A DNA stretch of 64,000 bases from an uncultured Gammaproteobacteria bacterium. GTDB lineage: Bacteria; Patescibacteriota; Patescibacteriia; Magasanikbacterales; UBA922. Below the pieces are notes generated by a model. It did not search any database, was not told where the DNA came from, and saw nothing but the letters and a program-made list of their open reading frames with translations. Shown piece by piece: positions 4,007-51,626 of this stretch (positions are counted from its first letter, which is position 1; each line of letters starts with the position of its first letter). The stretch lies in assembly GCA_964394405.1 (NCBI GenBank), contig CAYMVY010000002.1, positions 128,092 through 192,091 on the forward strand, written 5' to 3'. The position numbers and the translations under genes are program-made.

Positions 4007-4796
4007 GTGTGGTGGTAGTGATAATAATTGAGACTGTGTTTACGTATGAGAGGTCGGCAATCGGATTGAGAATCGCCTGTTGAAATGGTTGCAAAGGTTG
4101 TTTTTCTATAAATTCCACTTTTCCTATCATGAGGCCGCGAGGCATATTCTCTGTGAGTCCTGAGGTGACGACAATATCACCTGGATTTACAATTTCGTTT
4201 TGTGGAATAAAGTTCATCTGTACTCCGATATCATATCCTCCCTCGACAAGCCCGATGGTCCGCTCTCCATTGAGGAGTGTTGCTCCAATTTTGCTCTGAT
4301 TATCATTAATCAATCGGACGTGAGAAATCGTATCGAATGCCTGAATTACAGTTCCAACCAACACTCCATCACCTACGATGACTGGGTTTGTTGCTACAAC
4401 ACCATCGGCTAACCCTCTATTGATCGTTACGACGGTGCTTAGCGGGTCTACTGTTCTCCCGATTACCTCAGCACCCACACGTTCAAATGAATGTTTTGAA
4501 AAAAAACTAAGCTGCTTGCGTAGCTCTTCATTTTCTTCTTTTAATTGCACCAGTTCGGCTGTATCGATTGCGCATACGGCTTCTACTAGCTCTCGATCAA
4601 ACGTCTGGGTAAGCTTTTCATTGATTGAATTTTCTCTATCTACACCCAATTCCCTACTATACGAAAATTGTGAACCTTTATAAAAAAAACGTAGAATGAA
4701 GTTTTCTAGCGGTTTCAATACTCCGAGTGACTGCATTACAACAACGCTCAAAATTATGATACCTATACTTACTATTGTCCGGTATCTTTTTTTCAT
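3993..4796 (-). CDS. mreC: Rod shape-determining protein MreC
   Basis: 267 aa. N-terminal TM, coiled coil (ELVQLKEENEELRKQL), then beta-rich domain with G-rich motifs (VVTSGL..). Immediately downstream of mreB. Confidence 0.8.
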   Translation of the reverse strand: MKKRYRTIVSIGIIILSVVVMQSLGVLKPLENFILRFFYKGSQFSYSRELGVDRENSINEKLTQTFDRELVEAVCAIDTAELVQLKEENEELRKQLSFFSKHSFERVGAEVIGRTVDPLSTVVTINRGLADGVVATNPVIVGDGVLVGTVIQAFDTISHVRLINDNQSKIGATLLNGERTIGLVEGGYDIGVQMNFIPQNEIVNPGDIVVTSGLTENMPRGLMIGKVEFIEKQPLQPFQQAILNPIADLSYVNTVSIIITTTTHATE

Positions 4797-4809
4797 ATAA
4801 CTCTACGTA

Positions 4810-5853
4810 TTATATCTCTCTCGCTGAAGGAAGGGTGACTTGTTTCAATAGTTCGTCATCTTCGAGTAGTAATCCCGCGCCACGTACTACGGCTGTCAAT
4901 GGATCATCGGCAACTCTCACCGGTATCTCTGCTGCGCGAGCAATGACTACGTCGAGGCCTTCGAGCAATGCGCCTCCACCGACCAATAGAATACCCCGCT
5001 CGTGAATATCTGCGGTCAGTTCAGGTGGGGTGACTTCGAGTGTCATTTTGATATGATCGACAATTGTCTTTACACTGCGACTGAGCGCCTGTCTCACATG
5101 TTCGTCTGAAACCATAATTTCCTTTGGAAGACCAGTAACTGAATCTCGTCCGCGCATCGGGAACTCAACACGTTCTTTTCGTGGCAGTGCTCCTCCTGCT
5201 TTTATTTTTATTTCTTCTGCATGCGCTTCACCCACGAGGAGTTTGAATACTTCTCTCGCATATTGAATAATATTTCGATTCATTTCATCACCTGCGATTT
5301 TGGTGGATTTCCAGGTCACTACACCGCTGAGAGAAATGATTGCAATCTCGGTGTTGCCACCACCAATATCTACAATCATATTTCCGACCGGGTCACGCAC
5401 GGGCATGCGCGCACCAATTGCTGCTGCCATAGGCTCCTGGACGATATACACTTCTTTTGCCCCTGCAGCGAGAGTTGCATCCTCTACCGCCTTCACCTCT
5501 ACCTCAGTCACATCGAGGGGCACCACAATGACCACGCGAGGTCTGGTGAAGAAAGAAAAAGAGGATTTGGTGACTTTCTCAATAAAAAATTTGAGCATTT
5601 TTTCAGTAACTTCATAATCAGAAATAACTCCTCCGGAAAGCGGACGAGTCACTTCGATATGTGGCGGGGTTTTTCCCAACATCTCCTTTGCCTCATGCCC
5701 CACAGCGAGAATCTGCTCTGTTTTGGTATTTATCGCAACGAATGATGGTTCATTGATCACGATCCCCTTCTCAGGGCTATACACCAGCGTATTCGCTGTC
5801 CCTAGATCGATTGCGAGACTACTGTTTTTGGCTTTAAACCAGTTTTTGATCAT
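4810..5853 (-). CDS. mreB: Rod shape-determining actin homolog MreB
   Basis: 347 aa. Classical MreB motifs: LAIDLGTANTLVY, phosphate-1/2 and adenosine motifs, DIGGGTTEIA-like. Confidence 0.95.
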   Translation of the reverse strand: MIKNWFKAKNSSLAIDLGTANTLVYSPEKGIVINEPSFVAINTKTEQILAVGHEAKEMLGKTPPHIEVTRPLSGGVISDYEVTEKMLKFFIEKVTKSSFSFFTRPRVVIVVPLDVTEVEVKAVEDATLAAGAKEVYIVQEPMAAAIGARMPVRDPVGNMIVDIGGGNTEIAIISLSGVVTWKSTKIAGDEMNRNIIQYAREVFKLLVGEAHAEEIKIKAGGALPRKERVEFPMRGRDSVTGLPKEIMVSDEHVRQALSRSVKTIVDHIKMTLEVTPPELTADIHERGILLVGGGALLEGLDVVIARAAEIPVRVADDPLTAVVRGAGLLLEDDELLKQVTLPSAREI

Positions 5854-8031: not shown

Positions 8032-10974
8032 TTACTGTCTAAATTCACAGATGTTTCTAAACTCGCAATATTTACATACAAACTGACTTGGTGTCGCTAT
8101 GAACTTCCCTTCTCTGATTTTTTCAATAGTGGTCTCTAATTTTTCTTTGAGTTTTTCTACGTCTTTTGGTTCAGCTTGAAACGAGGTGCGCATCCCATCG
8201 TTTACATAATAAAACGTGAGTTTTCCTACGGGACCAATATGACGATACTCTGGTAGTGTTTCCGCGGCAATGTGGTAGAGCAACAACTGTTGTTTGTCAT
8301 CAGTATCGAGCGTTTCTTTTGAATTTCCGGTTTTGTAATCAATAATTTCAAGCGAACCATCAGCTTGCTGGTCAATACGGTCAATACGTCCATTGATTAC
8401 ATATTCCCCCACCTTCACCTTGAACCAGCCTTCGAGTGCTACGGGAATAGTCCAGTGACCCTGCTGTGTTGTATAGAAAACTTTTAAAATTTCTTTACCT
8501 TTTTCATAATATTTTTCTCGTTGTTGTTTGTCCTGATACCAATCATTGATCCACGATTCATCATACATTTTGTATAATTCTTCCAGGGTCGGAACTTGTA
8601 CCTCTCCATTATTCTGTTCAGATGAAGGTGCGGCGATATCGAATAAAGAAACTTGTGTGACTCGGTTTAATTCTTGTACTCGGGTATAGAATTTTTGCAT
8701 GGTCGCATGAATACTGTTTCCAAAACTAAAACTCGCAGTACCTTTTGATTGGATTTTTAGTACATGAGCTAGTTTGTATTGATAGGGACATTTGAGAAAA
8801 CTGATGATTTGCGAGTGAGAGAATTTTTTTGGTATTTCGTATACCACTTCTGCATTTTTTGGTTGAGGTGTTTTTTTATACGTTCCAAGATCAGTACTAC
8901 CTTCTGCATGTGTGCTGGTACCAGCGAAACCAATTTCATCGAGGAATCTGCTTATTTTTTTCTTTCGTTTTCTATCTTCTCCATAGTAGTCAGCACTAGA
9001 AAAGTACAACTGTTCTTTTGCGCGAGTAACCCCTACGTAAAATAATCTACGTTCTTCTTCGGTATGAAAATCTGCATTATCAGACAAATGTTCATGAATA
9101 AGTTCAGAGGGTAATTCAATTCCTGATGAACGTGCGCGTGTAGGAAATCGTTCTTCTACACAATTCACCATAAAGACAAACTTGTATTCAAGCCCTTTTG
9201 ACGCATGAACCGTCATCACATTTACCGACTCACTGGTTTCTCGTGGCTGGAAAATTTTTCCCTGATCACCTGACTCGAGTACAAAATCAAAATGTTCAAC
9301 AAACCCAAGTACATTTGCTCCTGGAGTTATCTCTTCGTAACCACGAATCAGATCAAACACTTGTTTCAGATACTGAATTTGACGAACTACTTGCCTGTTA
9401 CCTTTGCCCTCCTCATGTGTAAGATATGCTAAATATCCCACCGTTTCCAAAAAATCATATAATACTGCGGTCGGTTTTTCATGTTTTGCAGCTTCAATCC
9501 CCTTTTTCACACTTGAGACCAGTGAATCAAGGTGCAGTATACTTGCATCAGTCACATATAATTCTTTTGCTCGGCCAAGAGCTTCGAAATAGCTAATAGA
9601 TTTTCGTTTTGCTCCTGAAACCAGTCTCTGAACATCGCTTGGATCGACTGAAATACACGGTAATCGCATAAGACGATACCATGAATCATCCTCATATTGT
9701 CTTGCAACAATCCGGAGAAATGCTAATACATCGAGTACTATCGGCTGACGATACAGTCCACCCGATGCGAGAAATTCATAAGGGATCCCATAGGTCTCTA
9801 GCGCATTTAGAAACGGTTGCGCATGGCTATTTGCTCGAACGAGTATTGCAAAATCATCCCAGGTTGCTTCCTCGTGTTGCTTTTTTAATTCTACTATTTT
9901 TTTTATCACAGCAAACACTTCGGCATCCAGTGTTTCAGTATGTAAGTGCTCGATTATACATTTTTCTATTTTTCCCTTTGCAACTAGTTTTTTGTCAATT
10001 GATAATTTTGCTTCGAGTCGATCAGGGTTATTGAATACAATTGATTTGTAAGCGAGGTCGAGAATTGCTTGACCTGAGCGATAGTTCTCGGTCAACACCA
10101 CTTCAGCAGCTTTGGGAAAATCTTCTTTGAAACGTAAGATGATCGATACGTTTGACCCACGGAATGAATAAATAGACTGGTCATCATCCCCCACGACAGT
10201 TAATTGTGATTTTTCTGCTAGAAGTCTAATCAATTCGTATTGCGCATAATTTACATCTTGAAATTCATCTACCAACACGTGTGTGAACTGAGTCTGAATC
10301 GCTTTCAGAATATTCGGACGTTCTTTTAGTAGTTTTACTGAATAATAAATCAGATCGCCAAAATCAAGCGCATTGTTTTCCAAAATCAGCTTATTATATG
10401 TGTGATATGCATTTGCAATTTCAATCAGACGATTTTTTTCTTGCACTCCTGCTTCATCTTTATCGAGAATCAATCCTTCGACATGGTCGATATAGTTTTG
10501 TGCTGAAATAAGTTCATCTTTTGCTTTGGAAAAGTGATCAAGGAGTGTATGAATATTTGAATTAGGATTTCCCAGTGGTCGATAATAATCGAGATTAAAA
10601 TCATAGATGTGATCGCGTACGAGGAGCCATGCATCGGTATCAGTGATGAGTCGGAAATTTTTTGGCAACCCAATTTCAAAGCCAAATTTTTCGAGTAATC
10701 GCTGACAAAACGTATGGAACGTGGAAATCTGCAGTTCGGTATATCCGAGCTCAATTTCAGAATCAACCCGTTCTTGCATTTCATTGGCAGCTTTCTCAGT
10801 AAACGTGAGGGCTAAAATATTCTCAGGTTCGGCAATACCACTAGCTAGTAAATGAGAAATTTTTTTGGTAATAACTGTCGTTTTTCCTGTTCCTGCTCCT
10901 GCAACAATAAGCAAAGGACCGTCGACATACTCGACCGCCCTTTGTTGTGCTTCATTAAGACGATTTTCCCCCAT
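8032..10974 (-). CDS. UvrD/PcrA-family SF1 helicase fused to a C-terminal Cas4/AddB-like PD-(D/E)XK nuclease domain with a Cys cluster
   Basis: 980 aa. Walker A AGAGTGKTTV, UvrD motifs and DEFQD Walker B. The C-terminus has CPYQYK...IDRID...IIDYKTG...CKYCEFRNIC, i.e. a PD-(D/E)XK core plus four Cys. Confidence 0.85.
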   Translation of the reverse strand: MGENRLNEAQQRAVEYVDGPLLIVAGAGTGKTTVITKKISHLLASGIAEPENILALTFTEKAANEMQERVDSEIELGYTELQISTFHTFCQRLLEKFGFEIGLPKNFRLITDTDAWLLVRDHIYDFNLDYYRPLGNPNSNIHTLLDHFSKAKDELISAQNYIDHVEGLILDKDEAGVQEKNRLIEIANAYHTYNKLILENNALDFGDLIYYSVKLLKERPNILKAIQTQFTHVLVDEFQDVNYAQYELIRLLAEKSQLTVVGDDDQSIYSFRGSNVSIILRFKEDFPKAAEVVLTENYRSGQAILDLAYKSIVFNNPDRLEAKLSIDKKLVAKGKIEKCIIEHLHTETLDAEVFAVIKKIVELKKQHEEATWDDFAILVRANSHAQPFLNALETYGIPYEFLASGGLYRQPIVLDVLAFLRIVARQYEDDSWYRLMRLPCISVDPSDVQRLVSGAKRKSISYFEALGRAKELYVTDASILHLDSLVSSVKKGIEAAKHEKPTAVLYDFLETVGYLAYLTHEEGKGNRQVVRQIQYLKQVFDLIRGYEEITPGANVLGFVEHFDFVLESGDQGKIFQPRETSESVNVMTVHASKGLEYKFVFMVNCVEERFPTRARSSGIELPSELIHEHLSDNADFHTEEERRLFYVGVTRAKEQLYFSSADYYGEDRKRKKKISRFLDEIGFAGTSTHAEGSTDLGTYKKTPQPKNAEVVYEIPKKFSHSQIISFLKCPYQYKLAHVLKIQSKGTASFSFGNSIHATMQKFYTRVQELNRVTQVSLFDIAAPSSEQNNGEVQVPTLEELYKMYDESWINDWYQDKQQREKYYEKGKEILKVFYTTQQGHWTIPVALEGWFKVKVGEYVINGRIDRIDQQADGSLEIIDYKTGNSKETLDTDDKQQLLLYHIAAETLPEYRHIGPVGKLTFYYVNDGMRTSFQAEPKDVEKLKEKLETTIEKIREGKFIATPSQFVCKYCEFRNICEFRQ

Positions 10975-10990
10975 ATAGTCGACTCAACTC

Positions 10991-11947
10991 TTAGTACTGT
11001 AGTTTCACTGGTGCTGGCACCGTGACTTCGTTAGTAGTTTTTTCTGGTGCAATTACTGGGAAACATTGTCTGCCAGCGCCATGTTCATATCCGAACATGT
11101 TTGGTTCTGCAGGAGTGTATCGCGTTATTGAATCATTTAGTGCTTCATTTGACGACATAGTGAACGTCGCACAGAGTTCATACTCTCTTTTTCCTGTTGC
11201 CCGGTATTCATACTCAATTCCTGTTTCAGGATCATTGATAATGCCACCAAAATAATACGGAGGCGTATTCAATTCTGCCAATGCTGCAGGAAGTTTACCT
11301 AGCTGTGTGTAGTATGCGTCAATCGAGTATTTGAGACTTTGAAGATGTTGTGATCGCATACTATCGAATCGTAGCGCCCGTTGTTTTGTAGGACTACCAA
11401 TGAGAAAGAAAGCTCCAACTACAAATACTGCGACCAACCCGATAGCGCCGTATCTGAATACGCTTCGTCTTACTTTGGTAAGCGCATCTCGAATATCATA
11501 GAGATAGTATGCAAAAATCATTGCAGCGACTAATAGAACTGAGAGTGCTTTGAGGAAGAATCGAACCGTGAGCTCACCTGAAAGGAAACTATTCAAAATT
11601 GAAATGAGTGAACCAATAATCATGAATGTTGCCACAAACAGAGTAAGGTATACGAGCCACTTACGAACACCTATTGTTTTTAATTCAGGGCTTTTTGTAT
11701 ACCCTTTCTGCAAATACCATGCAGACCAGATGTAGACTGGAAATACGACGACGAGTGTTGCTATTGCAAAACGGAGCGGACCATTGCTCATATCGTAGTA
11801 ATAGTAGTCTGGAAGAAGCGCGTCAGGGAAAAAGCGATTTACATACTGAAACATGAGGGTGATAAATGCGGTCGCGCTCATGTAGAGGGTAACGATTGAG
11901 AGCAGATGAAGGAATGTGTCACGTGCGGTGGATTTGTGTTCTGACAT
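10991..11947 (-). CDS. Hypothetical membrane protein (N-terminal multi-TM, C-terminal soluble domain)
   Basis: 318 aa, about five TM helices, then a Tyr/Gly-rich C-terminal domain. No confident family. Confidence 0.45.
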   Translation of the reverse strand: MSEHKSTARDTFLHLLSIVTLYMSATAFITLMFQYVNRFFPDALLPDYYYYDMSNGPLRFAIATLVVVFPVYIWSAWYLQKGYTKSPELKTIGVRKWLVYLTLFVATFMIIGSLISILNSFLSGELTVRFFLKALSVLLVAAMIFAYYLYDIRDALTKVRRSVFRYGAIGLVAVFVVGAFFLIGSPTKQRALRFDSMRSQHLQSLKYSIDAYYTQLGKLPAALAELNTPPYYFGGIINDPETGIEYEYRATGKREYELCATFTMSSNEALNDSITRYTPAEPNMFGYEHGAGRQCFPVIAPEKTTNEVTVPAPVKLQY

Positions 11948-11957
11948 AGAGGATAGA

Positions 11958-12476
11958 TTAGTTAATTAGAGAAATAAGTTTGGTAATCATTTTTTTGACA
12001 TCTTCAGTATACTGTTTTTCCAGATCTTCTTTAGAAAGATTTTCAACCAATCCTACGTATACACTTGGGACGACTGCTTTCATCTGCAGATACATGAATA
12101 TTGCCATCAGGTGCTCAATCATGCGAGCCCCACCGATTTTACCCGATGACACGCCGACAACCCCTACAGCTTTTCCCTCATATTCTCTATACGCCATATC
12201 AAGGAGTAATTTGAATTCTCCAGGATAACTCCGATTGTATTCTGGAATGACGAAGATGAATCCAGCAGCTCGTTTGGCGATTTCTTTCCAACGTTTTGTC
12301 TTGTCACTCTCTTCCCAGCTTGGGATAGTCCGAGGTATTTCAACAAAATCTTTGACGTCAATAAATTCAGTTTCGATATCAAATAACTGTGCAGCCGAGT
12401 GTACAAATTTTGCTACTTTTTCTGACTGTCTTCCTTCTCGTGCAGTGCCGAGAACAATTGGGATGTAGGGCTTCAT
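11958..12476 (-). CDS. NAD(P)H-dependent FMN reductase (flavodoxin-like fold)
   Basis: 172 aa. GTAREGRQSE near the N-terminus and PEYNRSYPG motifs typical of the SsuE/YieF/ArsH-like FMN reductase family. Confidence 0.75.
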   Translation of the reverse strand: MKPYIPIVLGTAREGRQSEKVAKFVHSAAQLFDIETEFIDVKDFVEIPRTIPSWEESDKTKRWKEIAKRAAGFIFVIPEYNRSYPGEFKLLLDMAYREYEGKAVGVVGVSSGKIGGARMIEHLMAIFMYLQMKAVVPSVYVGLVENLSKEDLEKQYTEDVKKMITKLISLIN

Positions 12477-12529
12477 ATACTACGTATTATATATACTAGA
12501 GTAACAGATTCGCTTATTTGAGGCAACTA

Positions 12530-12557
12530 TTGACAAAAATCAATCATCATCTATACT
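12530..12557 (+). promoter_or_regulatory. Candidate sigma70-type promoter (TTGACA-16-TATACT) facing high-GC island A
   Basis: ttgacaaaaatcaatcatcatctatact read directly. Lies in the AT-rich host-like spacer just before the GC jump. Confidence 0.3.
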
Positions 12558-12659
12558 ATAGCCCTCCTCACGCTGATTCTCTAACAGAAGAACAACAGCC
12601 ACAGCACCATGACTGAGGAGTAATGTGTGCTTTTTCTGGAGCAACTAATGGATCCGTAT

Positions 12660-13169
12660 ACCTTCACCCAGCGCACCGGTAATGCCTTCCTCGCTCTGCC
12701 CCGTGTGACTGTCTACGACTGCCACATCCCCGTCTTCTCCCGCACCTTCACCATCCTGCATCAGGATGACCTCCGCCAGCTGATCTTCATGATGGGCGTC
12801 GCGCGTGTCATCCAGACGACGGAGAAGGCGCACGAGCTCTACAGCGCGCTCGGTCTGGACATGCTCCCGAACATGGGGGCGATCGCTGAGCGTATGTCCG
12901 GCATGAGGAAGCTGAAGCCCGCGAACGGTCTCGAGTACATCATGACCGATGACTCGCCCCGTAGCATGCGTCTCCAGGGCGCCCGCCTGCCCGAGGTGCA
13001 TAGCTACCGCGATGCGTTCCTCCAGGTCCTCGGCCTCCACAAGTACGACCAGGTCTCGCCTGCGGAAGGCGTGACCCTGCTCGATCAGGTGCTCAAGGCT
13101 GATCTGCCGATGGATCAGGACATCGCCATGAAGATCGCGATCATCGCCGGCACCTTCGACTTGTTCTGA
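12660..13169 (+). CDS. Hypothetical protein of high-GC island A (169 aa from ATG 12660, or 180 aa from 12627)
   Basis: Strong GC3 bias on the plus strand. The antisense 175-aa ORF is Arg/Leu/Glu-rich, typical of a non-coding frame. GGAG sits 7 nt before ATG 12660. No recognisable domain. Confidence 0.5.
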   Translation, partial: TFTQRTGNAFLALPRVTVYDCHIPVFSRTFTILHQDDLRQLIFMMGVARVIQTTEKAHELYSALGLDMLPNMGAIAERMSGMRKLKPANGLEYIMTDDSPRSMRLQGARLPEVHSYRDAFLQVLGLHKYDQVSPAEGVTLLDQVLKADLPMDQDIAMKIAIIAGTFDLF

Positions 13170-13375
13170 CACACAAGTTTCTCTAGCCTTCCCAGGAAGG
13201 TATTGCAGGTAGAGAAGAAACTACACGACGATTGGGACGCGTGAAAACGCGTTTGGAGATTGGACGAATCCTGCTTCGTCCTTCCTACTACTATCTTTAA
13301 TTATTAGAGGTAATTGAGGAATAAAAAGCCGCTTATGGGCGGTCTTTTTGTTTTTGTCAGTTTTACCCTCTAACC

Positions 13376-13404
13376 TTGACAAAAGGGCTTAATTGTGCTA
13401 TACT
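13376..13404 (+). promoter_or_regulatory. Strong consensus sigma70-like promoter TTGACA-17-TATACT inside island A
   Basis: ttgacaaaagggcttaattgtgctatact. A structured GC-rich leader and two small ORFs follow. Confidence 0.4.
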
Positions 13405-13513
13405 GAGCTGTTTCCGTATCTAACCGCAGGTTGTAGAGGTCGTACCTCATTGAAGTACCCCCTCTACAGCGCTACGGAATGGATCCGTCGCTGAGACCCC
13501 TTGGAGAGGACAA

Positions 13514-13642
13514 ATGAAGAAGTATCTCATTGCCGCTGGACTGACGATCGGACTCACCTTGATGGTGGTCCGCGTGGTCACCTGGGTCGTTAACGAGGCC
13601 CCGGTCGTTCCGGAGCGGCACCAGTTCGTGTACGACCCGTGA
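13514..13642 (+). CDS. Small hydrophobic peptide (42 aa) MKKYLIAAGLTIGLTLMVVRVVTWVVNEAPVVPERHQFVYDP
   Basis: GGAGAGG SD 6 nt upstream of the ATG. Single TM helix plus charged tail. Inside high-GC island A. Not in the ORF track (under 60 aa). Confidence 0.35.
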   Translation: MKKYLIAAGLTIGLTLMVVRVVTWVVNEAPVVPERHQFVYDP

Positions 13643-13658
13643 ACATCGGGACGTGCAA

Positions 13659-13730
13659 CATGCTCGGCAGCGCGTCGGTCATCGCTATCGTGGTGGTCAT
13701 CGTGGCCATCCTGAAAGCGTGCTACGCGTG
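13659..13730 (+). CDS. Very small hydrophobic peptide (23 aa) MLGSASVIAIVVVIVAILKACYA
   Basis: Begins 17 nt after the previous ORF. Entirely hydrophobic. A GC-rich hairpin (gggcggtgtcgcaagacgccgccc) follows. Confidence 0.25.
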
Positions 13731-13807
13731 AAACCTAACAACTGGGCGGTGTCGCAAGACGCCGCCCGAACCCAACTATCATTTTAAATCTTTGAAGTGA
13801 TTGAGGA

Positions 13808-13839
13808 CCCTGTACCAGAACGGTACAGGGTTTTGATTT
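13808..13839 (+). terminator. Rho-independent terminator hairpin ending island A (ccctgtacc agaac ggtacaggg + T-run)
   Basis: Perfect 9-bp stem followed by ttttgattt. Confidence 0.5.
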
Positions 13840-13844
13840 GCACA

Positions 13845-15620
13845 CTACTCAATAAACCCTCCAACTTGCGTGCCCCAGAGTTCCTGGTATATTCCTGTTT
13901 TTTTACTTACCAATGCTTTGTGAGTACCTTGTTCGACTATTTTTCCTTTGTCCACTACGATAATTCGATCCATATGCATGATAGTCGATAATCGATGCGC
14001 GATTGCAATGACTGTTCTTCCTTTTACCAATTCATGTAATGCTTCCTGGATCAACCTTTCTGATTCTGAATCAAGGCTTGAAGTAGCTTCGTCGAGTACG
14101 AGAATCGGAGCGTCCTTCAACATTGCTCGTGCCATAGCGATACGCTGACGCTCCCCACCAGATAATTTCACTCCTCGTTCCCCTACCATCGTGTCATAAC
14201 CTTGTGGAAACGACGTAATAAATTCATGGCATTGCGCACGCTTCGACGCAATAATCATTTCTTTTTCAGTAGCATCTGATCTCCCGTACATAATATTCTC
14301 TCTCACGCTACGATGAAACAATACAGGATCTTGTGGTACGTATGCAATCGCACGCCACAGACTTTCCTGGGTTACTTCGGTAATCGGAGTATTATCAATT
14401 TTGATGGCACCTTTTGAAACGTCGTAGTAGCGAAGTAGTAGTTTTACGATAGTTGACTTCCCTGCTCCTGAATGCCCGACGAGCGCTACTTTTTCTCCAG
14501 GACGTACCAAAAGTGAGAAGTCATTCAGCAATGCTTTTTTAGCATTGTATTTGAATGTCACTCGCTCGAACTTAATACTCCCTTTAGTAACTTCAAGATT
14601 AATTGCATCCTTTTTATCAGTAATCCCATGTGGCGTGTAGTAAATAGCGGCAAATTCTTTTGCATCTGCAAAATGTTCATATACATCACGAAAACTTCGT
14701 GCAAAATTCCATACACGATGAAATACTGCAAGCGAATAGCCATTTATCAGGACCAAGTCTCCAATAGTGAGTGTGCCCGCACGCCAAAACTGTAAGGCGA
14801 GATAGAGTAGTACTATTTCAAATAAAGTCATAAGTGCACCCTGTAAACCATCAAGTTTGATTGTGAGTACACGCGAAAAGAAACGTCGTGATCGTACTTC
14901 CTCTGATACGGTGTCAAAATTCTTTTCTTCTTTGAGGTATGATGAAAACAACTTTACATTTGGATAATTGGTGACAATATCAGCCAATACACCTGTTTGT
15001 TTGCTCTCGGCTTCACTTCTGAGTGCGTCAAATTTTAATTTATAGAGACTTGTGTAATATGTTGCTGCTAGGTATAGAATCAACCATCCGAACAGAAGAA
15101 GTCCAAATATATAATTGGTCATGAACAATACTACACCGATCGATAGAATTAAAAATCCTGAGCCGAATAGTGTGTATTGAAGAAAATCAATCATGATCAC
15201 CGTAAATGCGCTTTCAAATTTTCGCATGTCTGAGATAAGCGAACCAATGTATTTGTTTTCAAAAAAATTAAACGAATGACGAAGAGTGGTTTTTAACATT
15301 TCATTATATAATTTTTTTCGTACGTGCATTTCCGATCGTGCACGGAAGTAATGATGCAAGCGATCAGAAATCCAATTCATGCAGAGCAGTCCTAAAATCA
15401 AAAAAACCGCCTGCAATGCTTCGTTATATGCCATTTCTCTGGTAAACGTTTCATTCGTTAGTGCATCAATCAATAGTTTGTAGAAATATGGATATGCTAG
15501 ATCTCCTGCATTCCACAATATAATAAATATCGAAGAAACAACAAAAGACCATTTGAATGGACGTAAATATTTCCAAAATAATTGTAACACTTGCTTATTG
15601 GTAACTTCGGAGGGTTTCAT
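13845..15620 (-). CDS. ABC transporter, fused permease/ATP-binding exporter (MsbA/LmrA-like)
   Basis: 591 aa. Six-TM domain, then Walker A GHSGAGKST, ABC signature LSGGERQR and Walker B ILVLDEATS. Confidence 0.9.
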   Translation of the reverse strand: MKPSEVTNKQVLQLFWKYLRPFKWSFVVSSIFIILWNAGDLAYPYFYKLLIDALTNETFTREMAYNEALQAVFLILGLLCMNWISDRLHHYFRARSEMHVRKKLYNEMLKTTLRHSFNFFENKYIGSLISDMRKFESAFTVIMIDFLQYTLFGSGFLILSIGVVLFMTNYIFGLLLFGWLILYLAATYYTSLYKLKFDALRSEAESKQTGVLADIVTNYPNVKLFSSYLKEEKNFDTVSEEVRSRRFFSRVLTIKLDGLQGALMTLFEIVLLYLALQFWRAGTLTIGDLVLINGYSLAVFHRVWNFARSFRDVYEHFADAKEFAAIYYTPHGITDKKDAINLEVTKGSIKFERVTFKYNAKKALLNDFSLLVRPGEKVALVGHSGAGKSTIVKLLLRYYDVSKGAIKIDNTPITEVTQESLWRAIAYVPQDPVLFHRSVRENIMYGRSDATEKEMIIASKRAQCHEFITSFPQGYDTMVGERGVKLSGGERQRIAMARAMLKDAPILVLDEATSSLDSESERLIQEALHELVKGRTVIAIAHRLSTIMHMDRIIVVDKGKIVEQGTHKALVSKKTGIYQELWGTQVGGFIE

Positions 15621-15646
15621 AATGCATATAAGTATATCATAAAAAC

Positions 15647-15676
15647 AAAAACAGCCTCGTTTTGAGGCTGTTTTTG
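15647..15676 (-). terminator. Intrinsic terminator downstream of atpC (aaaacagcctcg tttt gaggctgtttt)
   Basis: Perfect 10-bp hairpin with flanking A/T runs on both sides, so it could act in both directions. Confidence 0.55.
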
Positions 15677-15679
15677 TTG

Positions 15680-16099
15680 CTATCGTGTAGGTCTGTATTT
15701 CTTTGCAATACGCAATCGATTGAGTTCTTTTTCAAGAGAAGCTTGGACACGTGCGAAGTCTACGTCTGCAGATTTCTCTTCTGCTGCGAGCAATTCTTCT
15801 GCTCGTTTTCTTCCAGCCTCAGCGCGTTCGAGATCAATTTCTTCTGCTCGCTCTGCGCTATCTGCTAAGATGTAGACTGTGTTATCACTTCGTACTTCAG
15901 CTACTCCGCCCGAAACTGCAATTGGTACTTCATGATCTTTTTTGAATACAATCAATTCACCCGCGTCAAGAATAGTAATAAGCGGAACATGGTGTGGCAA
16001 AACCGTAATATATCCTTCCTTTGTCGGGATGGTTACTTTGGTCACTTGTTCGTCTGCATAGACGATACCTTCTGGTTTTACAATTTTGAAATTAATCAT
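15680..16099 (-). CDS. atpC: F1 ATP synthase epsilon subunit
   Basis: 139 aa. N-terminal beta-sandwich (MINFKIVKPEG...) and C-terminal helical hairpin. Confidence 0.9.
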   Translation of the reverse strand: MINFKIVKPEGIVYADEQVTKVTIPTKEGYITVLPHHVPLITILDAGELIVFKKDHEVPIAVSGGVAEVRSDNTVYILADSAERAEEIDLERAEAGRKRAEELLAAEEKSADVDFARVQASLEKELNRLRIAKKYRPTR

Positions 16100-16183
16100 A
16101 GTTAGCTAATAGAACACGGATGGTCACGGATTAATTCAATTTGGAATTTTATTTGAACTTTTAAATTTGAACTTTGGGCTTTT

Positions 16184-17575
<1,392 letters not shown>

Positions 17576-22634: not shown

Positions 22635-23147
22635 CTAGGACTTTTGCATGTCAGAAATCAATCGGTTGGTCAGTTGTGTATCAATCGCGTCTGTAACCCC
22701 TTCTCCTAGTACTTTTTCTACGGCACCCACCACTAATTCAGCAGTCTCTTTGCGTAGTTCATATTGCATCTGCTCTTTCTCTGCCGCAATCGTAGTTTTT
22801 GCTTGTGCAACAATTCCTGCCACATCCTCTTTTGCTCTCTGCCGCATACTTTCAGCTAGTACTGATGATTCGGTAACCGCCTGCCCAATAATACTATTTG
22901 CCTGTTTTTTTGCATCTTCAAGTATTTCTTCTGAATTACGCCGTGCCATTGCCACATCCATCTCAGATTTTTTAAAATTTTCTTCTGTTTCTTCTGCCAT
23001 ACGCTTACGATCTTCAATCACTTTTAGTATCGGCACAAAAAATAGACGTTTGAGAATATAAAATACAAGCAAAAAATTAATGAGGTTGAAAAGCGCCATT
23101 TTCCACTCAAATCCTACTTTCCCTAATGTCTCTAGAATATACTCCAT
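22635..23147 (-). CDS. atpF: Fo ATP synthase b subunit (copy 2)
   Basis: 170 aa. N-terminal TM plus charged coiled coil. Paralogous to 20417-20995. Confidence 0.75.
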   Translation of the reverse strand: MEYILETLGKVGFEWKMALFNLINFLLVFYILKRLFFVPILKVIEDRKRMAEETEENFKKSEMDVAMARRNSEEILEDAKKQANSIIGQAVTESSVLAESMRQRAKEDVAGIVAQAKTTIAAEKEQMQYELRKETAELVVGAVEKVLGEGVTDAIDTQLTNRLISDMQKS

Positions 23148-23171
23148 AGTTCGGTGACGTAGCTCAATTTA

Positions 23172-23387
23172 CTAGATAATAAAGAATGCTACGAATGCGT
23201 AAATCGCGGTTGATTCTGCAAGTGCTACGCCGATGATCATTTTGGTGAATAAGCTGTTCTCAACCATTGGATTTCTTCCAATAGCCTCGAAAGCTTTACC
23301 AATAAGATACCCCTCACCTATTGCTGAACCAAACATTGACAAAGTTGCCATCCCCTTTGCAATTAATCGTGCTGCTTCGATTTCCAT
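23172..23387 (-). CDS. atpE: Fo ATP synthase c subunit (copy 2, Na+-binding signature)
   Basis: 71 aa. Helix 1 AIGEGYLIGKAFEAIGRNP and helix 2 VALAESTAIYAFV. The E/ES-T/Y ligand set corresponds to I. tartaricus Q32/E65/S66/T67/Y70. Confidence 0.85.
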   Translation of the reverse strand: MEIEAARLIAKGMATLSMFGSAIGEGYLIGKAFEAIGRNPMVENSLFTKMIIGVALAESTAIYAFVAFFII

Positions 23388-23457
23388 ATAGTTATATTTA
23401 CACTATTAAATTAAATAAAAAACATATTATCACCAATCGAGTAGTCAATTGGTAATA

Positions 23458-24249
23458 TTATGTTTTCTGTTGTTCCTGCGTTGCCACTGCGAGTGTAATG
23501 TATGCAGCTGTCAACGAACCAAACACCATCGCCTGCAATACCCCGACTAGGAGGTTCATTGCAGTCCATGGTGCTGGTACGAGCACTGCAAGTGCTCCTA
23601 GGAATATCGCTGCCAAAACTTCGCCCGCATACATATTTCCAAACAAACGCAACGAAAGGGAGATGACTTTTGCAAATTCTGAAACAATATCCAATAATCC
23701 AATAAAAAAGTCAATAATCGCGAGCATTCCTGCACCAACACCTTTTCTGAAACCTTCAAATATTTCTTTTATTTTCACAAATTTTCCAATGTGTCCAAAT
23801 AATCCAAAATCTCTAATACTCATCACATTTGCGAGTATGACCATCGCGAGCGCGATACTAAATGTCATGTTGAAATCATTGGTAGGGGTGCGGAAAAGCG
23901 AAACCCCATTGTATGTGATTGCCGAGAGACCTGGGATTAGCGTGACGATATTTGAAAAACCCAAGAAAAGAAATAATGCACCAATCAGGGGGAGTAATTT
24001 TTTTGCAAGTTTCTCATTTCCGGTAATTGATGTAAGTAACCCTACAAATACTTCAACAATCTTTTCCACCAATGCTTGGAACGAAGTAGGCACATTGTTT
24101 TTTCTTCTGTATATTGAAAGTGAAATACATAAGAAAAATAACGTAACCATTACCCCCATAAGCATTGCATTGGTAAATTCAAAACTCCCAATCGAGAATA
24201 TCGTCTCTGGGCGAATTGAGATTTGTTCTGAAGGTACTTGCAGAAACAT
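23458..24249 (-). CDS. atpB: Fo ATP synthase a subunit (copy 2)
   Basis: 263 aa. Conserved ISLSLRLFGNMYAGEVL with Arg. Confidence 0.85.
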   Translation of the reverse strand: MFLQVPSEQISIRPETIFSIGSFEFTNAMLMGVMVTLFFLCISLSIYRRKNNVPTSFQALVEKIVEVFVGLLTSITGNEKLAKKLLPLIGALFLFLGFSNIVTLIPGLSAITYNGVSLFRTPTNDFNMTFSIALAMVILANVMSIRDFGLFGHIGKFVKIKEIFEGFRKGVGAGMLAIIDFFIGLLDIVSEFAKVISLSLRLFGNMYAGEVLAAIFLGALAVLVPAPWTAMNLLVGVLQAMVFGSLTAAYITLAVATQEQQKT

Positions 24250-30338: not shown

Positions 30339-30408
30339 AGTATAAAGTATCCACATCGTAGCAGAAAAATGGCTGCATGTAAACAAATATGTGTCATAAA
30401 AACAGAAT

Positions 30409-30430
30409 GCCCCCGTACGAATACGGGGGC
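30409..30430 (-). terminator. GC-rich hairpin terminator of island B (gcccccgta cgaa tacgggggc)
   Basis: Perfect 9-bp G/C stem, lying downstream of the 30442-31011 ORF on the minus strand. Confidence 0.45.
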
Positions 30431-30441
30431 CCAAGCAAAGA

Positions 30442-31011
30442 TCAGTAGTCGCAAGACCCCTCCGTCCTCACGGCGATAAAACGGGTGTTGTCCTGCCATT
30501 CGTCCGTAGTCTTCATGAGCACGAGCTTGCGGGTGGCGAGCCTATCATTCATCACATCGAGGCAGGGTGTCATGGATTCCCCTTCTACCACGATGGTCAC
30601 GGTCCCGAGAGACACGATCGGTCCAGCCCAGACGTAGGATCGCGGGTATTGTTCCGCGAATGAGAGCAGATGTATGAGCTCACCTGGTTCGAGGCATCGT
30701 TCATGGATTTCGAGAAGGGCCTCCTCGGTGGTGACGCTTCGGCCGAAGTAGACGAACGTGAGGTCGACCGAGTAGATCTCATGACCTTCACTCGGGAAGT
30801 GCTCGCTCGTGAAGTACTCTTCCGATTCGACGTAGGCTCCGATCCGCTCGACCCTCTCCTCGACCTCGATGCTCTCGTCGATGTGAGTAGGACAGAACGC
30901 ACCATCCATGCAGTGGGTCATGTGAAACGGACGGAAGCTCTCGCTTTCGCACGAGATGTTCGAGAACGAAGATGTTAGAGCACATATCGCGATGAAAAGA
31001 ACTCGAGGCAT
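30442..31011 (-). CDS. Hypothetical secreted Cys-rich acidic protein of high-GC island B
   Basis: 189 aa. Signal-peptide-like MPRVLFIAICALTSSFS, six further Cys, GC3-rich codons. AGGAGAAGGAGA sits 6 nt before the ATG. Overlapping frames are Arg/Ser-rich artefacts. Confidence 0.5.
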   Translation of the reverse strand: MPRVLFIAICALTSSFSNISCESESFRPFHMTHCMDGAFCPTHIDESIEVEERVERIGAYVESEEYFTSEHFPSEGHEIYSVDLTFVYFGRSVTTEEALLEIHERCLEPGELIHLLSFAEQYPRSYVWAGPIVSLGTVTIVVEGESMTPCLDVMNDRLATRKLVLMKTTDEWQDNTRFIAVRTEGSCDY

Positions 31012-31181
31012 TGTCTTTCTCCTTCTCCTACAGTTGCGCCCTTAATCGACACACCGTATGCGGAACAAGGGCTAGACACTGATTCTACGCTAATCTATCT
31101 ATTCACTATTGTCAAATTTTTACAACTGGAACACATCTACTATTTTTGTTATACTACCTTATGTTCATAATTAAAACTCTT

Positions 31182-45470: not shown

Positions 45471-45572
45471 ACACAATACATTATATTATTTGTAGACTGG
45501 TTAATTAAAACACAGATTATATAGAGATGCAATGAATGTATATCTTTACAAATACACTAATTTATGATATAC

Positions 45573-45601
45573 ATCTCCTTCCTCACGACGAGGAAGGAGA
45601 T
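45573..45601 (+). promoter_or_regulatory. Perfect hairpin sequestering the Shine-Dalgarno of the island C ORF (atctccttcct cacgacg aggaaggagat)
   Basis: 10-11 bp perfect stem whose 3' arm is the AGGAAGGAG ribosome-binding site, 6 nt before ATG 45606. Confidence 0.45.
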
Positions 45602-45605
45602 GATC

Positions 45606-45941
45606 ATGGCTGTACTGAAGTTTGAAAAGTACGACAACGAAAAGGCCGCTCTCGCCGCAGAAGAGGATGCTATCGACCTGCTCATACCCCTCCAGGTAGG
45701 GAGTGCCGAAGCGGCACGACGTGGTAGTGTTCTCATCTACATCCCGAAGGATAATACGGGTGAAGGTGAATACGAGCTCGAACACGCCGAAATCATGCAT
45801 CACGACCCCAAACGGCGTACTGTACTGGTCGAGGTGCAGGACGATGGCCAGGGTCCCAATGAGAACCCGCGAGCAGGGCAGGTGGTAGAACTCCCGGACG
45901 ACACCCTCTGCTACGTCGCACCACCAGCCACCTCCGAGTAG
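45606..45941 (+). CDS. Hypothetical acidic small protein of high-GC island C (about 112 aa)
   Basis: GC3-rich codons on the plus strand. The antisense 151-aa ORF looks like an artefact. No recognisable domain. Confidence 0.45.
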   Translation: MAVLKFEKYDNEKAALAAEEDAIDLLIPLQVGSAEAARRGSVLIYIPKDNTGEGEYELEHAEIMHHDPKRRTVLVEVQDDGQGPNENPRAGQVVELPDDTLCYVAPPATSE

Positions 45942-45964
45942 CACACCATACAACTCAGGAGGTT

Positions 45965-45999
45965 GTGTCAGGTCGGAGGCTCTGCTTCCGACCTGACAC
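45965..45999 (+). terminator. GC-rich terminator of island C (tgtcaggtcggag gctctgc ttccgacctgaca)
   Basis: 13-bp near-perfect stem followed by attt-rich sequence. Confidence 0.5.
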
Positions 46000-46079
46000 A
46001 TTACACACCCCCATTTTGATCGTAATACATTTTTTAAATTTATTCAGTTGAAGGAACTTTATTTACAAAAGTATAATTA

Positions 46080-46107
46080 AAAATTTCCCTATAAAGGGAA
46101 ATTTTTG
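46080..46107 (-). terminator. Terminator hairpin downstream of the cupredoxin gene (aaatttccc tataa agggaaattt)
   Basis: Perfect 10-bp stem with flanking A/T runs. Confidence 0.5.
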
Positions 46108-46137
46108 TTATTAGCATTATAATACAGTCTGTGAAAT

Positions 46138-48269: not shown

Positions 48270-48809
48270 ATGATCATTAACAAAAGCCTGTCCGTCTCAG
48301 CAGTGACCAATCAGTGCGGAAAAATCAACGCAGTCTCCAGGGATGGAAAACTGCACATCACCTACACCGGCCCCACTCTCTCCCATGAGACGGTCGAAAA
48401 AGTGATCAGCGCTATGGTTACCGAGATCGACAACTCCATCCCGCAGATCCTGCAGCCTTCAGATAAAGGCAAAGTACTCGATACTCCCGAGATCCTGTGG
48501 CCAGTACTCGACATCGAGGTCAGAACGCTCCCACTCCTCCAATATGGAAACCAGTGGGAGAGTACTCGTGCGCTCAATGGCATGATGGATGCCAACATAC
48601 GATACCTCGGACAACTGGTGCAGAGGACTGAGAAGCAGATAATCACCGGCCTTCCTCGAGTAGACTGGCCACTCAAGCATTTCGGTCGCAAATGCTTGAA
48701 GGTGGTTAAAGACTGCATCTCACCCTTGGGCGTGCATTTCGGGATGGACATCCTCGGCTGGGTCCCGCCTGATGAACGCCTCATGATGCCTACCGAGCAG
48801 GACACCTAA
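48270..48809 (+). CDS. High-GC island D protein with C-terminal RNA polymerase alpha-subunit CTD-like (HhH) domain
   Basis: 179 aa. Residues about 75-170 align by eye with E. coli RpoA 250-325: ILWPV.DIEV.., IRYLGQLVQRTE vs IHYIGDLVQRTE, FGRKCLKVVKD...GVHFGM vs LGKKSLTEIKD...GLSLGM, WVPP vs WPP. The N-terminal 75 aa are unrelated to the alpha NTD. Confidence 0.55.
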   Translation: MIINKSLSVSAVTNQCGKINAVSRDGKLHITYTGPTLSHETVEKVISAMVTEIDNSIPQILQPSDKGKVLDTPEILWPVLDIEVRTLPLLQYGNQWESTRALNGMMDANIRYLGQLVQRTEKQIITGLPRVDWPLKHFGRKCLKVVKDCISPLGVHFGMDILGWVPPDERLMMPTEQDT

Positions 48810-48843
48810 AGCGCCCCCCCTCTGTGGGCGCGCACCCCCCTTA

Positions 48844-48895
48844 CCCCACGCGTAGTGTAGCAATACGGCTACACACTACACGCGTGGGGTTTTAC
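48844..48895 (+). terminator. Long GC-rich palindromic terminator of island D (ccccacgcgtagtgtag...ctacactacacgcgtgggg + T-run)
   Basis: Extended imperfect palindrome followed by ttttacatttt. Confidence 0.45.
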
Positions 48896-48904
48896 ATTTT
48901 ATAC

Positions 48905-48937
48905 AAAAACATCCCGACTAATTCGGGATGTTTTTAT
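48905..48937. terminator. Bidirectional terminator between convergent genes (aaaacatcccga ctaatt tcgggatgtttt)
   Basis: Perfect 12-bp stem flanked by A-run and T-run. Confidence 0.6.
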
Positions 48938-51257: not shown

Positions 51258-51626
51258 ATGGCCCACGTGTTTACGATGCTGATCGAGGGTGATAAAAACC
51301 CGAGCGAAGGTGATCTGTACCTGCTTTTCATGAAGTCTCGTGACTTCTTCGGTGAATGCGAAGCGACCTTCTACGGAAAGGATTCAAAGACTGGTCAACC
51401 GATTCAACGCTCCTGCCTCATCTCGAGTGTCGGATGGGTTCCGAAATCTATGAATAGCCTGAAAATCGAAGGCTCCTACCGCATCACTGATGAGTGCCCC
51501 TCGGTTCATATTCCGGAGTACAACCCCCTGAAGAAAACCGGCACGATGACTTACACTCTCCCCAAGCCCAACGCGGGAGAGCTGATGGAAGAGGTCCACT
51601 TTGGCCAGGAGCTGGCTGTCGCCTAA
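51258..51626 (+). CDS. Hypothetical small protein of high-GC island E (about 122 aa from MAHVFTML)
   Basis: AAGGAGAGAG SD precedes this ATG. The ORF-track GTG start at 51171 lacks an SD. GC3-rich. No domain recognised. Confidence 0.45.
   Translation: MAHVFTMLIEGDKNPSEGDLYLLFMKSRDFFGECEATFYGKDSKTGQPIQRSCLISSVGWVPKSMNSLKIEGSYRITDECPSVHIPEYNPLKKTGTMTYTLPKPNAGELMEEVHFGQELAVA

Follow-up and report, generated by a model that had tools for sequence, protein, structure and literature searches.

A candidate flexible slot carrying two GC-rich orphan cassettes in a Candidatus Magasanikbacteria-like chromosome

We analysed a short GC-rich island within a stretch of 64,000 nucleotides (hereafter the window; contig CAYMVY010000002.1, positions 128,092 to 192,091 of the forward strand, assembly GCA_964394405.1). 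The island lies at window positions 12,500-13,840 and encodes an orphan protein of 173 residues (ORF173) followed by two tiny hydrophobic peptides of 42 and 30 residues (pep42 and pep30). Our favoured reading, to which we give slightly more than even credence, is that the island is what this strain carries in a flexible slot, of the replacement type, within a Candidatus (Ca.) Magasanikbacteria-like chromosome, and that it holds two autonomous cassettes, namely a moron-like ORF173 unit and an operon whose peptides would act on the membrane under the control of a folded leader RNA. In public records, proteins sharing 90% or more identity with the window's helicase, atpC and DUF5671 products carry the name Ca. 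Magasanikbacteria, and the host is therefore a bacterium of the candidate phyla radiation (CPR, or Patescibacteria).

The island and its chromosomal slot

GC content within the island peaks at 0.60-0.67, as against a mean of 0.409 for the whole window. It is 0.61-0.65 across 12650-13100 and 0.57 across 13400-13850, with flanks of 0.39-0.44, and in segments of 150 nt the maxima are 0.667 (in 12591-13210) and 0.647 (in 13431-13810). GC content at third codon positions (GC3) is 0.85 in ORF173, 0.81 in pep42 and 0.90 in pep30, compared to 0.30-0.38 (about 0.33) in six neighbouring host genes. The atypical composition reported in the initial annotation, which was made from the sequence alone, is borne out by these values, and all the elements described there were found where they had been placed: a GC3-rich open reading frame (ORF), a spacer with several hairpins, a consensus promoter, the genes of two tiny peptides with one helix each, and a terminator that closes the unit. 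The region 10565-16261 was recovered at 100% identity in an independent Logan assembly, and a second strain (loci L001 and L008) has the island at about 98% identity. L001 is collinear with the window as far as 13839 and fully divergent beyond that, and the right island boundary is at about 13840. The island is a real and sharply delimited feature.

The same chromosomal region was recovered from other lineages by using the neighbouring proteins as queries. The island sits between the flavin mononucleotide (FMN) reductase/DUF5671 genes and atpC, which is at the end of the atp operon; the neighbourhood comprises the atp operon and genes for a UvrD/PcrA-like helicase, the FMN reductase, MreBC and tRNA synthetases. 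The left edge of the slot, AGAGTAACAGATT-N-GAGGCAACTA-TTGACAAAA at 12498-12538, is found as the same block before the content in L003, L006, L019, L017 and L009, and the left-edge block AGAGTAACAGATT-N-GCAACTATTGACA is common to all variants. This edge includes the -35 box of the first promoter of the island (P1), while the opposite strand has a TTGTCA box facing the FMN reductase gene; in L003 a TTGTCA-17-TACAAT arrangement was scored on that strand. The fixed left edge would be a conserved divergent-promoter block ending in TTGACA.

What follows this edge differs from lineage to lineage. The window has ORF173, the peptide genes and an ATP-binding cassette (ABC) exporter, and L001 has ORF173, the peptide genes, a terminator termed T2 and a gene for a 61-residue protein. 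L006 carries the peptide genes, T2 and another GC-rich ORF, L019 the peptide genes only, and L003 a single gene for a 44-residue peptide. Two orphans of 119 and 145 residues occupy the slot in L009-L016, and a 117-residue orphan, the ABC exporter and the 61-residue gene occupy it in L017/L018. The ORFs of the slot have GC3 values of 0.5-0.9 in all variants as against about 0.33 for host genes. The slot would hold different GC3-rich orphan ORFs in different lineages, each placed between AT-rich promoter and terminator sequences of host type.

The exporter of the window is MsbA-like, host-like in GC content and encoded at 13845-15620 on the minus strand, convergent to the peptide genes. Beyond it lies the palindromic terminator T2 (15643-15679), which is unique in the window. 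Since T2-like terminators directly follow the cassettes in L001, L002 and L006, the exporter is itself an insertion in the slot. Among the relatives, L017/L018 have it, whereas L001, L003, L006, L009 and L019 do not.

The initial annotation regarded the whole 1.3-kb block as one self-contained foreign module and proposed to check other genomes for the same block as a mobile module. In favour of such a module, the second strain has the island at about 98% identity but an unrelated sequence to the right of 13840, and the compositional edges are sharp. L001 itself is a Logan contig of 1,461 bp spanning window 12516 to about 140 bp past the right edge, so that the assembly broke near the island. 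However, the two halves occur apart, which separates the block into two cassettes: the peptide unit, shared with L001, L006/L007 and L019/L020 and present as a one-peptide form in L003, stands without ORF173 in L006, L019 and L003, and in L002 the 270 nt that follow the only homologue of ORF173 (P0002, below) contain no peptide genes. A Pfam scan of 37 window proteins, made up of the three island ORFs, three flanking genes and 31 further proteins across the window but not of every small ORF, detected no domain of an integrase, transposase or recombinase. Terminal inverted repeats were not seen by eye at the junctions, where there is only an imperfect (74%) inverted repeat, 12517-12539 / 13351-13373. 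The island has no match in phage or plasmid collections or IMG/VR, and none in PHROGs at E < 0.01. Movement of the island as one module is thus quite improbable; what the comparison with other genomes shows is that the content of one fixed slot in the chromosome is replaced. Given the lack of a recombinase domain and of phage or plasmid matches, homologous recombination in the conserved flanks is the simplest explanation, and we infer that slot content is exchanged in this way.

Some further variation was noticed around the slot. The 61-residue protein (MEPAISIGFALGQILNFAIF...SEKIDSISKK; L017 7460-7709, L001 1384-1461) is an AT-rich small membrane protein, co-oriented with atpC; it is another variable occupant of the slot and is absent from the window. 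The FMN reductase gene is deleted in L006 (760-836) and L017 (about 10050-10139, both in locus coordinates), where a remnant of its first codons (atatacggttt) adjoins the conserved promoter block. Extra ATP-synt_B (170 residues) and ATP-synt_A (263 residues) genes lie upstream of the main atp operon (window 22635-24249, minus strand), and the extra ATP-synt_B subunit is also present in L017. In L019 the ATP synthase gamma gene (4577-5508) is called as pieces of 175 and 102 residues, which may reflect a frameshift, an assembly error or an insertion. Project SRP286056 consists, according to the literature, of Polish wastewater and river metagenomes.

The peptide operon

The peptide operon is preceded by promoter P2 (13376-13404, plus strand), a TTGACA-17-TATACT arrangement with a TG element and 11/12 matches to the consensus. 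Orthologous promoters are present in L003, L006 and L019. The predicted transcript begins with a leader (leader 2, 13411-13513) that folds into a long hairpin domain (13413-13483) followed by a helix (13484-13510). In the minimum free energy (MFE) fold this helix holds the Shine-Dalgarno (SD) sequence GGAGAGG (13503-13509) paired to an anti-SD located upstream. The L003 leader, though different in sequence, likewise has its SD paired in the MFE fold. Across five lineages, 90.5% of the alignment cells are paired in the consensus structure of the leader, and both partners have changed in 8 of the pairs; these values were reached in none of 500 shuffles, and controls with slid alignments gave at most 53% paired cells and 2-4 both-side pairs. 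The SD-pairing helix is kept in the relatives in silico, with both sides changed in three of its four pairs.

Searches with Rfam 15 gave nothing in the window at gathering score except one tRNA, and leader and tail of the operon belong to no family there. The best sub-threshold Rfam matches in a search at E up to 10 (E 0.4-9, far short of gathering; Phe and Thr leaders) were at chance level and driven by the terminator, and were set aside. An upstream ORF in leader 2 (MDPSLRPLGEDK, 13480-13518) was also rejected: L003 does not conserve it, and in L006 a 1-nt indel puts it in a different frame with respect to pep42.

pep42 (MKKYLIAAGLTIGLTLMVVRVVTWVVNEAPVVPERHQFVYDP, 13514-13642, plus strand) is a single-helix membrane peptide with a hydropathy of 2.12, and pep30 ((M/V)NIGTCNMLGSASVIAIVVVIVAILKACYA, 13639-13731, plus strand, start GTG 13639) is a single-helix peptide with a hydropathy of 2.94. 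Hydropathy here is that of the best 17-residue Kyte-Doolittle window, and pep42, pep30 and the 44-residue peptide of L003 span 2.1-3.1. The second peptide had been given as 23 residues in the initial annotation, but 30 residues is the more likely length, with a start that overlaps the stop codon of pep42. The overlap reads GTGA in the window and ATGA in L001, L006 and L019, and its conservation implies translational coupling. Orthologues of pep42 were found in L001, L006 and L019; a profile search with pep42 retrieved the L001 peptide only. The single peptide of L003 has the hydrophobic stretch of pep30 followed by KAC.

Compared with L006, pN (the proportion of non-synonymous differences) is lower than pS (that of synonymous differences) in both peptides (0.11 as against 0.39 in pep42, 0.23 as against 0.81 in pep30), and on this measure the peptides are under purifying selection over long distances. 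Between the close strains the pattern is different. The window and L001 differ at 22 of 218 sites in the peptide-coding block, compared to 10 of 584 in the non-coding flanks (p = 7e-7) and 4 of 522 in ORF173 (p = 4e-9), with a ratio of non-synonymous to synonymous change (omega) of about 1 in the peptides. This divergence points to allelic replacement or to diversifying selection limited to the peptide codons.

The 3' untranslated region (UTR) of the operon contains three hairpins, and its tail is far more stable than expected (z = -7.8). A GC-rich hairpin at 13744-13767 persists in L003 although the sequence has changed, and in L006 and L019 through compensatory changes. It is followed by a copy of a motif that we term the tail motif (ACTATCATTTTAAATCTTTGAAGTGATTGAGGA, 13775-13807), which includes a 10-bp AU hairpin (13778-13801), and by the terminator (ACCCTGTACC/GGTACAGGGT + TTTT, 13804-13839, hairpin arms 13807-13816 / 13822-13831). 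The latter was left unscored by the scan tool because its T-run is short. The AU hairpin together with UGAGGA is almost invariant across five lineages in which synonymous sites are near saturation (pS about 0.7), and it is therefore a selected element. JGI metagenomes and IMG/VR were searched for the exact pattern of the tail motif and gave no match; L006 itself comes from a JGI sample, and the JGI collection is thus incomplete for such a search.

These features suggest the following mode of action. P2, a consensus sigma-70-type promoter, would drive a leader of about 100 nt whose 3' helix pairs the ribosome-binding site. With the SD held in this helix, translation of pep42 would be gated by refolding of the leader, and pep30 would arise when ribosomes re-initiate, in a coupled manner, at the (A/G)TGA overlap. 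The three-hairpin 3' UTR with its nearly invariant AU hairpin may stabilise or regulate the mRNA. The peptides would most likely act by a dose-limited membrane perturbation resembling that of type I toxins, or else as small membrane regulators.

Type I toxins are typically shorter than 60 residues and hydrophobic, with a transmembrane helix and mRNA elements that sequester the ribosome-binding site (PMC8309996). They also have cationic residues, as a rule near the C-terminus. The membrane toxins of this class (Ibs, Fst/Ldr, TisB, AapA1, BsrG; PMC8309996) resemble the present operon in several ways: hydrophobic single-helix peptides of 30-44 residues, a highly structured mRNA with a long 5' UTR that occludes the ribosome-binding site (predicted here), and an accessory locus that varies between lineages. 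A bona fide type I toxin-antitoxin locus, in which pep42, pep30 or both are the toxins and the antitoxin is a cis-encoded antisense small RNA (sRNA) over the 3' tail or an sRNA acting in trans, would explain the size and hydrophobicity of the peptides, the predicted sequestration of the SD and the variability of the locus. It would also account for the extraordinary conservation of the 3' UTR, as expected if an overlapping RNA were encoded there.

However, no sigma-70-like antisense promoter was detected in the peptide module of the window, L006 or L003, so that no candidate for the antitoxin RNA has emerged, although a promoter of non-consensus type or an RNA encoded in trans might provide one; TAAAAT, which resembles a -10 element, does occur in the tail on the minus strand, but by eye no acceptable -35 element goes with it. 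The two coupled peptides are atypical, there is no sequence similarity to known toxin families, and a cationic C-terminus is not conserved: the net charge is +1 for pep42 and pep30, whose C-termini are mixed, and -8 for the L003 peptide, which has an acidic tail. The searched literature contains no report of type I systems in Patescibacteria, known cases being limited to a few phyla (PMC12390103). A complete type I locus therefore seems unlikely to us, although it deserves to be kept in mind. Because the antitoxin RNA promoter was not found and the C-termini are not consistently cationic, the operon is not filed as a type I toxin; by analogy, it would nevertheless work like one.

The position of the peptide genes next to an MsbA/HlyB-like exporter brings to mind a two-peptide bacteriocin whose peptides are exported by this transporter. 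Two small co-translated peptides, a GxxxG-like motif (GLTIG) in pep42 and the unusual divergence of the peptide-coding block between close strains agree with such a locus. The exporter, however, has ABC_membrane and ABC_tran domains only and lacks a C39 peptidase, its composition is host-like and its orientation is convergent to the peptide genes. It is not beside the peptide genes in L001, L003, L006 and L019, and in L017 it occurs without them. Neither a double-glycine leader nor a recognisable immunity gene was found. The absence of a C39 domain and of co-occurrence with the peptides is the reason why this explanation fails, and we consider it very improbable.

The ORF173 cassette

Upstream of the peptide operon, promoter P1 (TTGACA-16-TATACT, 12530-12557, plus strand) again has 11/12 matches to the consensus; it had not been listed in the initial annotation. 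The combination TTGACAAAA...TATACT occurs twice in the 64 kb of the window, at P1 and P2 only, as against 0.01 occurrences expected. Leader 1 (12564-12647, with a predicted transcription start) folds at its 5' end into a hairpin, CUCCUCA...UGAGGAG, and carries the SD sequence GGAG at 12637-12640. The fold of this leader has a z of about 0, so that its structure is not in excess, and TGGAG in the SD region is invariant in alignment A3.

ORF173 (12648-13169, plus strand) begins with an ATG that has GGAG seven bases upstream. The initial annotation had given an ORF of 169-180 residues starting at 12627 or 12660. The ORF was confirmed but its start is revised to ATG 12648, which yields 173 residues, because P0002 aligns from the first residues (it likewise begins MD) with this SD-bearing ATG. 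ORF173 has no transmembrane segment by hydropathy and appears to be a soluble protein.

The homology search that had been suggested for this protein was carried out in several ways and led to one true homologue and no known family. An exhaustive phmmer search of 1.84 billion representatives returned an identical copy (P0001), the true homologue P0002 and a spurious repeat protein (P0003), and word-indexed searches with the single sequence and with a profile returned P0001 and P0002 only. P0002 has 171 residues and is 49% identical to ORF173 over its full length (E 3.5e-41); its ORF, in L002, is also GC3-rich (0.785) and flanked by AT-rich DNA (GC 0.43-0.45). No family in Pfam, PHROGs, PADLOC or NCBIfam matches ORF173, and an OXA-like match of 14 bits was dismissed as meaningless. 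A profile search of PDB sequences found nothing at E up to 10, profile scans of GTDB representative genomes, IMG/VR and JGI metagenomes found no related locus, and blastn and tblastn against phage and plasmid collections found no match. Both the ORF173 family and the peptide family are effectively new.

The gene call on record lies on the other strand. An antisense ORF of 175 residues (P0005, 12645-13172, minus strand) is called in the NCBI and Logan contigs, with the same call in L004. Together with the sharp compositional contrast to the flanks, this call could be taken to mean that the island is an artefact, either a chimeric metagenome assembly or a misread region in which the antisense ORF is the real gene. 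The junctions, however, are identical in independent assemblies, the regulatory DNA within the island is host-like and homologous to that of relatives, and the frame statistics decisively favour the sense strand. GC3 is 0.62 in the antisense frame as against 0.85 in the sense frame. Relative to L001, ORF173 has four synonymous and no non-synonymous changes (pS 0.033, pN 0), and all four are non-synonymous in the antisense frame. In the comparison with P0002 of L002, pN/pS is 0.305/0.603 in the sense frame and 0.356/0.399 in the antisense frame. An artefact of either kind is hardly credible. As judged from the codon statistics, the antisense ORF is not a gene but a by-product of the high GC3 of the sense strand, and the substitution pattern indicates that ORF173 is under purifying selection. 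Since the recorded gene is on the wrong strand, the true 173-residue protein of this genome is missing from the protein collection. The wrong-strand annotation hides the real ORF173 family from sequence searches, and other members may be equally hidden.

The spacer downstream of ORF173 folds (MFE) into three stem-loops, gccttc/ccag/gaaggt (13186-13201), acgcgt-gaaa-acgcgt (13236-13253) and ggacgaa-tcctgc-ttcgtcc (13262-13281), with a z of -5.4. The two substitutions in L001 that fall within stems both retain pairing (13186 G>A changes G.U to A-U, 13237 A>G changes A-U to G.U). Next comes another copy of the tail motif (ACTATCTTTAATTATTAGAGGTAATTGAGGA, 13290-13320), folding as an AU-rich 9-bp hairpin. 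Its local alignment with the copy at 13775-13807 scores 30, compared to a mean of 15.8 and a maximum of 26 in shuffles. An intrinsic terminator (GCCGC-UUAU-GGGCGGU + T-run, 13328-13356, hairpin 13328-13343), supported by the terminator scan and by the fold, closes the cassette.

The cassette forms an 846-bp insertion between two copies of TTGACAAAA, at 12530 and 13376, the second being the -35 box of P2. The insertion is recognised from the relatives, whose matches break at TTGACAAAA on both sides (window 12498-12538 to its left, window 13385 onwards to its right). It supplies its own -10 element, leader, ORF, 3' hairpins, terminator and diverged copy of the tail motif. It is missing from the same slot in L003, L006, L019, L009 and L017, and none of these five loci has a housekeeping orthologue at the position of ORF173, the presence of which the initial annotation had named as counting against it. 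ORF173 is an accessory protein, and its unit would be a moron-like cassette between two TTGACAAAA -35 boxes, one for each promoter. A transposon with a 9-bp target duplication was considered; terminal inverted repeats just inside the two TTGACAAAA boxes were not seen by eye, and that idea is therefore unsupported.

Two short exact repeats link the cassettes. The 11-mer AATGGATCCGT is found at the start of ORF173 (12647-12657) and in leader 2 (13478-13488), and the 10-mer ACGCGTGAAA in the ORF173 tail (13237-13246) and at the stop codon of pep30 (13724-13733). The two pairs are collinear, a pattern that would result if a module had been duplicated and ORF173 had then taken the place of its peptide genes. 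They may be old recombination joints or have arisen by chance, about 0.3 exact 11-mers being expected per 1.5 kb.

Morons were defined from the HK97 and HK022 phages (review PMC3594210). The ORF173 cassette is similar to them in having its own predicted promoter and terminator, in its deviant GC content and in its absence at the same place in close relatives. In contrast to phage morons, it resides in a cellular chromosome among housekeeping genes and not in a prophage, and has no PHROG or phage match. Its regulatory parts are host-like, only the ORF being atypical and GC-richer than its surroundings, and it shares the tail motif with the neighbouring resident cassette. By analogy, ORF173 behaves like a moron in everything but its non-phage setting.

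Origin of the high GC3

Recent acquisition of the coding segments from a GC-rich donor, such as the host of the CPR cell or its phage, with no amelioration so far and no special local function, would explain GC3 values of 0.8-0.9 in a host with 0.33. The amino acids of ORF173 and P0002 are also shifted to GC-rich codons, the share of arginine among arginine and lysine, R/(R+K), being 0.65 in ORF173 and 0.72 in P0002 as against a host mean of 0.40, and the window contains several further GC3-rich orphans. However, no donor or homologue outside AT-rich Magasanikbacteria-like contexts was found in the collections searched (5.8 billion clusters, 1.84 billion representatives, GTDB representatives, JGI metagenomes, IMG/VR, phages and plasmids). 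The strong purifying selection on ORF173 also speaks against this reading. The orthologous peptide genes have GC3 values of 0.52-0.60 in L006, 0.67 in L003, 0.72 in L019 and 0.81-0.90 in the window, and are thus above the host level in every lineage despite saturated synonymous divergence. Maintenance, or replacement that has happened repeatedly, accounts for this better than a single recent event does. A recent GC-rich donor is possible, but we hold it to be clearly less probable than the exchange of slot content proposed here. The description of the island as foreign has to be qualified: the peptide module is resident in five lineages, its regulatory DNA is AT-rich and host-like, and the coding segments alone are GC-rich.

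The window contains other GC-rich orphans, which show no relationship to ORF173 or among themselves. One, of 189 residues (30442-31011, minus strand, GC3 0.71, R/(R+K) 0.85), has no match in Pfam, PHROGs or PADLOC and lies between RsmI-like and D-Ala-D-Ala carboxypeptidase-like genes, with its own promoter region of TTGACA type (about 31080-31115) and with a GC hairpin/terminator (about 30408-30432). A GC-rich cassette at 45540-46110, between mscL and a cupredoxin gene, encodes an orphan of 111 residues (ATG 45606, GC3 0.62); its leader hairpin ctccttcctcacgacgaggaaggag pairs its own SD, resembling the SD occlusion in the island, and its stop codon is followed by a GC hairpin and then by an AT-rich terminator. 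A GC-rich ORF of 179 residues (48270-48930, GC3 0.67) has an RNA_pol_A_CTD match in Pfam (E 4.6e-6, 26.7 bits, above cut-off) and seems to be a stand-alone protein similar to the C-terminal domain of the RNA polymerase alpha subunit in an accessory cassette, with a long GC hairpin and terminator downstream. The last, of 122 residues (51258-51626, plus strand, GC3 0.66), is adjacent to and divergent from a gene for a sigma factor of the extracytoplasmic function type (50504-51070, minus strand).

Comparison with known variable loci

Replacement-type flexible islands, or hypervariable slots between core genes, are known from marine and other bacterial pangenomes, and acquired genes are usually AT-richer than the core. 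The present locus shares with such islands a fixed site, conserved flanking genes and unrelated content in each strain or lineage, presumably exchanged by homologous recombination. It differs in that the slot is tiny (0.4-3.3 kb) with its left breakpoint at the -35 box of a promoter, and in that it holds single orphan ORFs with their own terminators, which are GC-richer than the core.

Integron arrays are similar in their short single-ORF units placed in series beside a resident promoter, and the conserved hairpin motif at the 3' end of both cassettes is reminiscent of them; a sequence weakly similar to the tail motif (64% over 25 nt) is also present at the left edge. In contrast to integrons, no integrase was found nearby among the 37 proteins scanned, the cassettes have their own promoters and the tail motif is absent from the cassettes of L009, L017 and L002. 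R/L core sites of attC were not identified, no formal search for attC having been made. The architecture is a variation on known kinds, combining morons or flexible islets with peptides that resemble type I toxins.

Several observations weigh against the reading of the island as slot content with two functional cassettes. The slot variants number about six and all come from short contigs or metagenome-assembled genomes. The promoters and terminators are predictions from consensus and folding, for which CPR promoters were assumed to follow sigma-70-like rules. The excess stability of the peptide leader is modest (z = -2.1 in the window, -1.5 in L003) and its covariation is drawn from five sequences. 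The C-terminal tails of the peptides are not consistently cationic, and no antisense promoter as in a type I system was found in the peptide module of three lineages. No donor was found for the GC3 excess, with peptide orthologues varying between 0.52 and 0.90 among lineages. An AlphaFold2 model of ORF173 from a two-sequence alignment was unusable (predicted local distance difference test, pLDDT, 38; predicted template modelling score, pTM, 0.28). Set beside these points, the fixed left edge, the exchange of content between lineages and the conserved RNA structure leave exchange of slot content as a reading that we find slightly more likely than not. The anatomy, the coding strand, the pattern of selection, the distribution among relatives and the conserved RNA structure are observed, whereas transcription, gating of translation, toxicity to membranes and any role of ORF173 are putative.

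Implications

It is tempting to extend these observations. Promoter-anchored swap slots in CPR bacteria (Magasanikbacteria) might generally keep AT-rich scaffolds while exchanging GC3-rich orphans with no recognisable recombinase, so that the flexible pool would be GC-richer than the core, and pep42/pep30 might be the first RNA-gated membrane-peptide system resembling type I toxins in Patescibacteria. We put this forward as a speculation that is rather unlikely to hold in full.

The locus provides a concrete and alignable example of variation in small CPR genomes, which have a good deal of unannotated accessory content. If the peptide operon proves to be a gated membrane toxin, systems resembling type I toxins would extend to a phylum with no reported cases, and the leader and the 3' hairpin would offer a conserved RNA element to study. 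If the GC3 excess of the slot genes is general, it would raise the question of whether the accessory genes of CPR bacteria come from the host organism, from GC-rich mobile elements or through biased gene conversion.

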